This document shows, piece after piece, positions 20,540-21,077 of a DNA stretch of 64,000 nucleotides. Below the pieces are notes generated by a model that ran no database searches, had not been told where the DNA came from, and saw only the letters and a program-made list of their open reading frames with translations. How positions within the stretch are numbered: position 1 is the first letter of the stretch; each line of letters opens with the position of its first letter. Location of the stretch: NCBI RefSeq assembly GCF_055900595.2, contig NZ_CM148325.1; one strand, written 5' to 3'. The translations under genes were made by a program, and so were the position numbers.

Positions 20540-20919
20540 AATGAATCCTTTTTCGATTTATGAGAATAAATACTCATTTAAGAGTGAAAACATTTTGCCT
20601 GCAAATGATTATCAGGAAATATAACATTATCGAAGTATTCAAATTAACAACTATTAAATAATATTAAACATTTTTAACGTAAACATTAAGAATATTCATC
20701 TTGTTATCTGTCTGTATTTTAACCAGAATTAAATAAGTATTAGATGCCGTATGAATATCTCGAAATGTTGCTGTGTATCACATACAAATCATCACCGCAG
20801 GACCATAGTATTTACATAAGGTTTGTCCCCCGGAGGTAGTCATCGCAGCAATCGAGTAAATTAGCTTCACCACGGTATATTGTTTCCGTAGAATACCCAT
20901 AATTATAAGAGAGGTTGTT

Positions 20920-20979
20920 ATGATTGAACGTGAACTGGGGAACTGGAAAGACTTTATCGAAGTTATGCTTCGTAAGTAA
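20920..20979 (+). CDS. ypfM: Micro-protein YpfM (19 aa)
   Basis: ATG with AGAGAGG SD upstream; encodes MIERELGNWKDFIEVMLRK, matching the described E. coli small protein YpfM; too short for the six-frame track. Coordinates by manual counting, +/-1. Confidence 0.6.
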   Translation: MIERELGNWKDFIEVMLRK

Positions 20980-21039
20980 TTCCTGAGACAAAGTACAAAC
21001 AGAAAGTACCTGCTGAACAGGTTCTTTATCGGAAAGTTG

Positions 21040-21072
21040 AAAAAGGCGACACATTAGTATGTCGCCTTTTTA
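21040..21072. terminator. Bidirectional rho-independent terminator (ypfM / acrD)
   Basis: AAAAAGGCGAC-loop-GTCGCCTTTTT: perfect stem flanked by A-run and T-run, between the ypfM stop and the acrD stop. Confidence 0.6.
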
Positions 21073-21077
21073 ATTGC

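Follow-up and report, generated by a model that had tools for sequence, protein, structure and literature searches.

Why should more than half a kilobase of AT-rich DNA separate yffB from acrD in Escherichia coli when the only gene encoded there has 19 codons? The question arises in the window analyzed here, a 64-kb stretch of DNA whose numbering is used throughout. A preliminary description of this stretch, made from the sequence alone, had remarked on a strongly AT-rich gap of about 540 bp, regarded it as a great deal of noncoding DNA for so tiny a gene, and suggested that additional regulatory RNA or nucleoid-protein binding sites might lie within it.

Composition and conservation of the yffB-acrD interval

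The window is E. coli chromosome, and the yffB/ypfM/acrD interval is a core-genome E. coli locus: of the 5426 complete E. coli genomes, 5425 match a 1.4-kb query around it, with dapE, yffB, ypfM, and acrD annotated, and one record is 100% identical over the whole query. (Elsewhere in the window, at ~1-300, lies hyfJ, a gene to which the closest RefSeq record, NZ_CP098223.1, assigns a frameshift.) yffB is the first gene of yffB-dapE-ypfN, and ypfM lies between the 3′ end of acrD and the divergent yffB, with its own promoter and Shine-Dalgarno (SD) sequence (Table 1). The interval from yffB to acrD (20540-21077) measures 538 bp and includes a noncoding spacer of 380 bp upstream of ypfM (from 20540) and a ypfM 3′UTR of 98 bp (20980-21077). 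That it encodes only a 19-residue peptide with its own SD, as first described, is confirmed by the RefSeq annotation of ypfM, whose product is identical to WP_001386977.1 ("protein YpfM").

Table 1. Features of the yffB-ypfM-acrD locus, in window coordinates
Feature	Position	Strand	Evidence and remarks
yffB CDS (ArsC-family reductase)	20183-20539	-	ORF list and RefSeq annotation; flanks the interval
Predicted yffB 5′UTR, ~71 nt	20540-20610	-	SD AAGGA at 20546-20550; 20540-20552 conserved in alignment A1
Putative yffB extended -10 element TGTTATATT (TGn + TATATT)	20618-20626	-	Invariant or near-invariant columns in A1
Very AT-rich, poorly conserved core between divergent promoters	20627-20755	.	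GC 0.24-0.26; unalignable between genera; H-NS/IHF-covered in K-12
Conserved block, putative distal ypfM promoter P2	20756-20790	+	Invariant columns in A1; K-12 TSS immediately 3′
ypfM distal TSS	20791	+	Kim 2012, supplementary TSS table (K-12), count 2; 5′UTR 129 nt
Conserved CATAGT hexamer (-10-like)	20804-20809	+	Invariant in A1
Proximal sigma70 promoter P1, TTCACC-17-TAGAAT	20866-20894	+	Consensus scan; RpoD genomic SELEX; sigma70 ChIP-seq
ypfM proximal TSS	20901	+	Kim 2012, supplementary TSS table (K-12), count 4; 5′UTR 19 nt
ypfM SD GAGAGG	20909-20914	+	5 nt 5′ of ATG; invariant in alignments A1 and A2
ypfM, 19 codons plus stop, MIERELGNWKDFIEVMLRK	20920-20979	+	RefSeq annotation; ORF kept across species; mass-spectrometric detection in E. 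coli
Predicted ORF-internal hairpin UUUAUCGAAG/CUUCGUAAR	20953-20976	+	RNAalifold on A2; first helix of Rfam STnc250
Sub-threshold match to Rfam RF01409 STnc250	20959-21078	+	39.1 bits, E 1.1e-5; gathering score 42
3′UTR hairpin	21003-21027	+	Fold, 3′UTR comparison, Rfam model helix
Bidirectional intrinsic terminator, ypfM (+)/acrD (-)	21040-21076	.	12-bp perfect stem 21040-21071, A5/T5 flanks
acrD	21078-24191	-	Stop codon end at 21078

The AT richness first described holds on measurement. GC content is 0.33 in the interval, 0.31 in the yffB-ypfM spacer, and 0.26 in the core at 20540-20800, as against 0.53 for the 64 kb as a whole; in a scan by 250-bp windows, the lowest values of the entire stretch fall in the yffB-ypfM interval (minimum 0.24), and windows with a GC content of 0.26 or less make up 0.1% of the total. 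TpA frequency is 0.115 at 20540-20800 versus 0.038 window-wide. Ranked among the intergenic spacers of the window (with the gene table of a near-identical record), the 380-bp yffB-ypfM spacer is the longest of 49 and the most AT-rich of those exceeding 50 bp; the second most AT-rich stretch is the eutS/maeB spacer (~35710-36027, GC 0.31-0.34). Most of the apparent surplus of noncoding DNA is accounted for by three promoters, two leaders, and a 3′UTR.

K-12 presents the locus in the same form, with an identical 19-residue ypfM (b4606) product, the same neighbors and orientation, both promoters and the terminator; its ypfM<>yffB spacer is 99.2% identical to that of the window (three differences in 381 compared positions). 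An idea that the spacer is hypervariable within E. coli, which a source-tracking paper and a divergent genome labeled "E. coli" in GTDB had suggested, proved wrong for E. coli proper, where 3003 complete genomes carry it at an identity of at least 99%. Identity is at least 97.9% among the full-length E. coli matches listed, and ~43 of the 5425 matching genomes have no match covering at least 80% of the spacer. Nucleotide diversity (pi, from nine E. coli genomes in a sample biased toward the most divergent spacers) is 0.016 in the AT-rich core (20540-20800), 0.0037 in the 120 bp proximal to ypfM, and 0.026 in the 3′UTR, compared with 0.03-0.055 at third codon positions of dapE, yffB, and acrD; that the spacer values lie below those of third codon positions indicates purifying selection on the spacer.

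Two peculiarities of individual strains were encountered in these comparisons. In the window strain, dapE and acrD differ from K-12 by 3.3-3.7%, the yffB-ypfM spacer differs by 0.8%, and the ypfM 3′UTR holds eight lineage-specific substitutions relative to K-12, seven of which are unique to this strain among the nine genomes and cluster at 21003-21072; the pattern looks like a possible recombination boundary near 21000. In E. coli F374 (L083, 2057-3096), an IS1A insertion is associated with deletion of the 5′ half of yffB and the AT-rich core, leaving 96 bp upstream of ypfM.

The preliminary description had also suggested that conservation of the peptide be compared with that of the surrounding DNA, and across genera the two differ. 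The acrD-ypfM-yffB arrangement is syntenic across Enterobacteriaceae, and the 19-residue ORF is retained, with this synteny, in 74 of the 80 yffB loci examined in Enterobacterales species genomes; in the spacer at the same place (median 389 bp, GC 0.37 across genera), only promoter- and SD-type blocks align (A1), and the middle does not.

Could the AT-rich core then be a remnant of horizontally acquired or mobile DNA, silenced by H-NS as foreign? Its strong AT bias, its binding by H-NS, and the IS1 insertion in one strain would all suit such an origin, but virtually all E. coli genomes contain the locus, and a long AT-rich spacer occupies the same place across genera. The spacer holds no terminal repeats or repeat families, the H-NS study considered below does not count yffB among horizontally transferred genes, and genuine plasmid copies are lacking: six "plasmid" matches look chromosomal (five come from E. 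coli, and of the five that were listed, four have a length of 1.4-4.9 Mb). We consider a foreign origin extremely improbable.

Promoters and leaders in the yffB-ypfM spacer

Transcription mapping was a further check proposed for the spacer, and the published K-12 table (Kim 2012) lists only the two ypfM starts within it, at 20901 and 20791, with none beyond these. The proximal start lies 7 nt downstream of the P1 -10 element TAGAAT. The same promoter was named in an RpoD genomic-SELEX study of K-12, and a sigma70 ChIP-seq peak is found at ypfM in K-12, with higher occupancy anaerobically. The P1 -10 element is found in 64 of 72 species-level loci.

Leaving aside the proximal promoter/SD region, conservation in the spacer is highest in the block that immediately precedes the distal start (A1). 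This block holds TTGC (20768-20771) and TCACA (20778-20782) at a separation of six nucleotides, with the consensus TTCAAA-18-TAAAAT. TTGC-N6-TCACA occurs in 57 of the 72 loci, its distance to the ypfM ATG staying within 150-166 nt in spacers that vary from 202 to 1041 bp, and TCACA-N18-23-CATA[GT]T occurs in 56. Support for the start itself amounts to a count of 2 from a single data set, and E. coli has a weak -10 at this position (TACAAA/CATACA). On the strength of these alignments, the block at 20756-20790 reads as a distal core promoter, P2, with an overlapping putative operator; sigma70 contacts do not explain the conservation of TTGC-N6-TCACA and CATAGT.

A class II CRP/FNR promoter with CATAGT as its -10 was considered for this element and rejected: only the right half-site fits, the left being the invariant TTGC, and no start has been reported at the position that CATAGT would give. 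For FNR, the study tables from K-12 contain neither a ChIP peak nor a predicted site at the P2 coordinates.

For yffB, we drew on Salmonella, where the gene has a 97-nt leader that contains a predicted Fur box and is repressed by the sRNA SdsR. A Salmonella spacer recovered by metagenome scan (L139) carries the published Fur and MarA motifs exactly, and its block equivalent to TGTTATATT ends 8 nt upstream of the published yffB TSS at -97. By this correspondence, the E. coli yffB promoter would lie at TGTTATATT, with a start near 20610 and a leader of ~71 nt; the exact motif is found in 26 of 72 species loci. The K-12 data hold no yffB start (TSS table) and no sigma70 peak at the yffB promoter. 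They do place a dapE start inside yffB (TSS table; window ~20449, minus strand, 5′UTR of 270 nt), which gives dapE a route of expression that does not depend on the H-NS-covered yffB promoter.

In the same Salmonella-type contig, the published MarA ChIP motif ACCCAATTTGATAAA lies 219-233 nt from the yffB ATG, with its center ~62 bp upstream of the start equivalent to that of P2, in a geometry resembling class I; at the aligned position, the E. coli window carries ACCAGAATTAAATAA.

A second small protein was sought among the remaining ORFs of the spacer, the best candidate being a 22-codon frame at 20751-20819 on the plus strand. This frame is intact in the window, in a divergent Escherichia genome, and in E. 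albertii, and a related one seems open in Citrobacter (A1, by eye). We nevertheless rejected it because it has no SD, because the mapped distal TSS (20791) falls downstream of its ATG, and because conservation in its block does not follow a 3-base period (two whole codons vary, and many third positions are invariant). Other spacer ORFs of at least 10 codons are all broken in close relatives, and we judge a second protein to be very improbable.

The additional regulatory RNA of the preliminary description, whether an extra small RNA or a structured cis-regulatory leader concealed in the spacer, fared little better. Several features could be read in its favor, namely the length of the spacer, the 129-nt leader of the P2 transcript, conservation within E. 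coli that exceeds that of synonymous sites, and the original cataloguing of Salmonella STnc250 as an sRNA candidate. A permissive Rfam scan of 20000-21600, however, returned only STnc250 itself (over the 3′ half of ypfM), which is the ypfM mRNA, together with terminator look-alikes. The K-12 annotation lists no RNA gene, ypfM (b4606) being the sole feature in the yffB-ypfM spacer, and the K-12 start table is confined to the two ypfM starts; the P2 leader has no excess of structure relative to shuffled sequences (z +0.92), the spacer middle is unalignable between genera, and no second ORF is convincing. A hidden RNA is thus highly unlikely. The action of SdsR on the yffB leader in Salmonella does mean that RNA-level regulation exists at the locus, but not in the shape of a new gene. 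Over the whole window, the only Rfam match above threshold is naRNA4 (RF02564, a REP-type nucleoid-associated RNA element; 89 bits) at 18740-18816 on the minus strand, in the ypfN/ypfH spacer, which is also present in K-12.

Nucleoid proteins and the organization of the locus

The second suggestion, that the interval might hold nucleoid-protein binding sites, agrees with published occupancy data from K-12, whose spacer is nearly identical. H-NS genomic SELEX marks the ypfM<>yffB spacer, and H-NS ChIP is "TRUE" for yffB in the same study that did not class the gene as horizontally transferred. H-NS ChIP-chip peaks correspond to window positions 20831-21561 and 19850-20640 (the called intervals leave the central ~190 bp, 20641-20830, uncalled), and an IHF ChIP-chip peak corresponds to 19928-20775. 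These and the other published occupancy and transcription experiments at the locus were made in K-12 or Salmonella rather than in the window strain.

Prediction of curvature and H-NS binding was another of the checks proposed. The H-NS 10-mer TCGATAAATT (two mismatches or fewer) has 60 matches in the window against 52 expected, three of them in the interval, and the helical phasing of A-tracts in the interval reaches a level attained by 135 of 500 shuffles. Because the motif is not enriched and the A-tracts are not phased beyond chance, the sequence predicts binding from AT content alone; sequence-only predictors of nucleoid binding add little here, and no clear signal emerges from them other than AT richness and TpA content. 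Matches to the IHF consensus in the spacer are likewise not above chance. The only perfect match, TATCAACGAATTA, lies inside yffB at 20393-20405 on the minus strand, under the K-12 IHF ChIP-chip interval.

Taking promoters, leaders, and occupancy together, the interval is very probably an ordinary, already annotated E. coli intergenic region that combines a divergent control region with a monocistronic small-protein gene. In this arrangement, yffB-dapE-ypfN would be driven by the minus-strand extended -10 promoter TGTTATATT (20626-20618) through a ~70-nt leader. ypfM is transcribed from the proximal sigma70 promoter (start 20901) and more weakly from the putative distal promoter (start ~20791), yielding mRNAs of ~175 and ~285 nt that would both end at the hairpin terminator common to the convergent acrD. 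H-NS and IHF bind the AT-rich promoters and also the ~130 bp that separate them, where AT content is extreme; their binding may damp the yffB promoter and mask its regulation, with ypfM P1 presumably staying accessible to sigma70 holoenzyme. H-NS silencing may be the reason for the AT-rich spacer.

Much of this has been published for K-12 or Salmonella, including the two ypfM starts, occupancy by sigma70, H-NS, and IHF, the Salmonella yffB start, control by SdsR, the Hfq-associated mRNA, and the YpfM peptide. The locus is already known, and its noncoding DNA is largely accounted for by promoters, leaders, the 3′UTR, and DNA covered by nucleoid proteins; to have largely explained so long and seemingly "empty" a stretch of AT-rich DNA in a thoroughly studied genome carries little weight beyond a tidy annotation. 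The arrangement has a known counterpart in the 63 type-A spacers that the RpoD SELEX study marked HNS (e.g., csgD/csgB and ompC/micF), H-NS-bound AT-rich divergent spacers in which constitutive sigma70 promoters overlap H-NS sites. ypfM<>yffB is itself among the 63; unlike the csgD/csgB-type cases, all that is on record for yffB and dapE is an O2 response unmasked in delta-hns delta-stpA.

The ypfM transcript, its peptide and comparable systems

The bidirectional terminator noted at first sight downstream of ypfM is substantiated by a 12-bp perfect stem between the convergent genes, which, being flanked by A5 and T5, can serve as an intrinsic terminator on both strands. The stem lies 7 nt from the acrD stop and carries compensatory changes at two positions across genera. 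A hairpin preceding the terminator is present in most genera, with unrelated sequences.

The window ypfM RNA is a positional orthologue of Salmonella STnc250 and not a formal member of that Rfam family. As in the window, Salmonella STnc250 lies between acrD and yffB, and the two share the ORF end, the GAAG/CUUC helix, and the terminator; of the mRNA, the Rfam model represents just the 94 nt at the 3′ end. Scores against this model are 125 bits for the Salmonella orthologue, 94 for Citrobacter, and 42.9 for Enterobacter, with K-12 sub-threshold; the window falls short of 42 because the middle hairpin of the Escherichia 3′UTR is longer and different. STnc250 was first listed in Salmonella as an sRNA candidate ("Hfq binding RNA") and later recognized as the ypfM small mRNA; it is ~220 nt on Northern blots, growth-phase dependent, and 4-fold enriched in Hfq coIP. 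The ~220-nt band fits neither ypfM start exactly.

These properties raise the question of whether the ypfM transcript has a function at the RNA level, either as a dual-function Hfq-associated RNA or through an element controlling its own stability or translation. Besides the Hfq enrichment, an indication comes from synonymous codons, whose identity to the window over 58 genomes is 0.825 in ypfM, compared with 0.54 in the acrD C-terminus and 0.56 in yffB; of 255 windows of equal size, only 2 reach or exceed the ypfM value. Hardly any variation is seen in the rare codons GGG and CTT. The consensus fold comprises the terminator and a predicted hairpin over ypfM codons 12-19; codon 15, the sole one to vary freely, falls in the hairpin loop, and those synonymous changes that are common preserve G-U pairs. 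The P1 mRNA (20901-21078) folds to -45 kcal/mol (z = -2.75 versus shuffles), and hairpins of the 3′UTR are retained despite sequence turnover.

Several points tell against such a function. The peptide is seen by mass spectrometry, and much of the signal is explained by conservation of its amino acids; in a gene of 19 codons, moreover, much of the ORF is near the ribosome-binding site, a proximity that is enough by itself to put synonymous sites under constraint. The pairs of the ORF hairpin are invariant and for that reason show no covariation, so that RNA-level constraint through this hairpin is a lead rather than a demonstration. In the predicted fold, the A-run pairs with the U-tail, which would make for a poorer Hfq module at the 3′ end. 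No target is on record, and the Hfq enrichment could simply mark an sRNA target. We therefore regard an RNA-level function as doubtful. A more elaborate proposal would place two regulatory layers at ypfM, a position-locked operator-like element (TTGC-N6-TCACA plus CATAGT) and RNA-level selection on the ORF that would render the transcript dual-function or self-regulating; this too strikes us as rather unlikely. The distal promoter element and the synonymous-site constraint nonetheless offer two handles, the one on when YpfM is made and the other on whether its RNA acts.

That YpfM is made in E. coli is established by top-down, DIA, and PRM mass spectrometry, which found it to be N-formylated. 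It is a conserved, expressed 19-residue protein. As read from its sequence, the peptide is charged and amphipathic, and we excluded a small ORF of a type I toxin-antitoxin system, as it is not of the hydrophobic membrane type. A search for an antisense partner of ypfM found neither an RNA family (Rfam scan) nor a conserved antisense ORF.

SgrS/SgrT and AzuCR are dual-function RNAs, and the ypfM transcript resembles them in being short, stable, and Hfq-associated, in ending at an intrinsic terminator and in encoding a tiny protein. It is unlike them in that no base-pairing target or regulatory activity is on record for ypfM RNA. A further parallel is yneM/mgtS, which is STnc570 and, like ypfM, a small-protein mRNA first catalogued as an sRNA. 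Set beside these small-protein cases, YpfM is distinguished by being a charged amphipathic peptide and not a membrane peptide.
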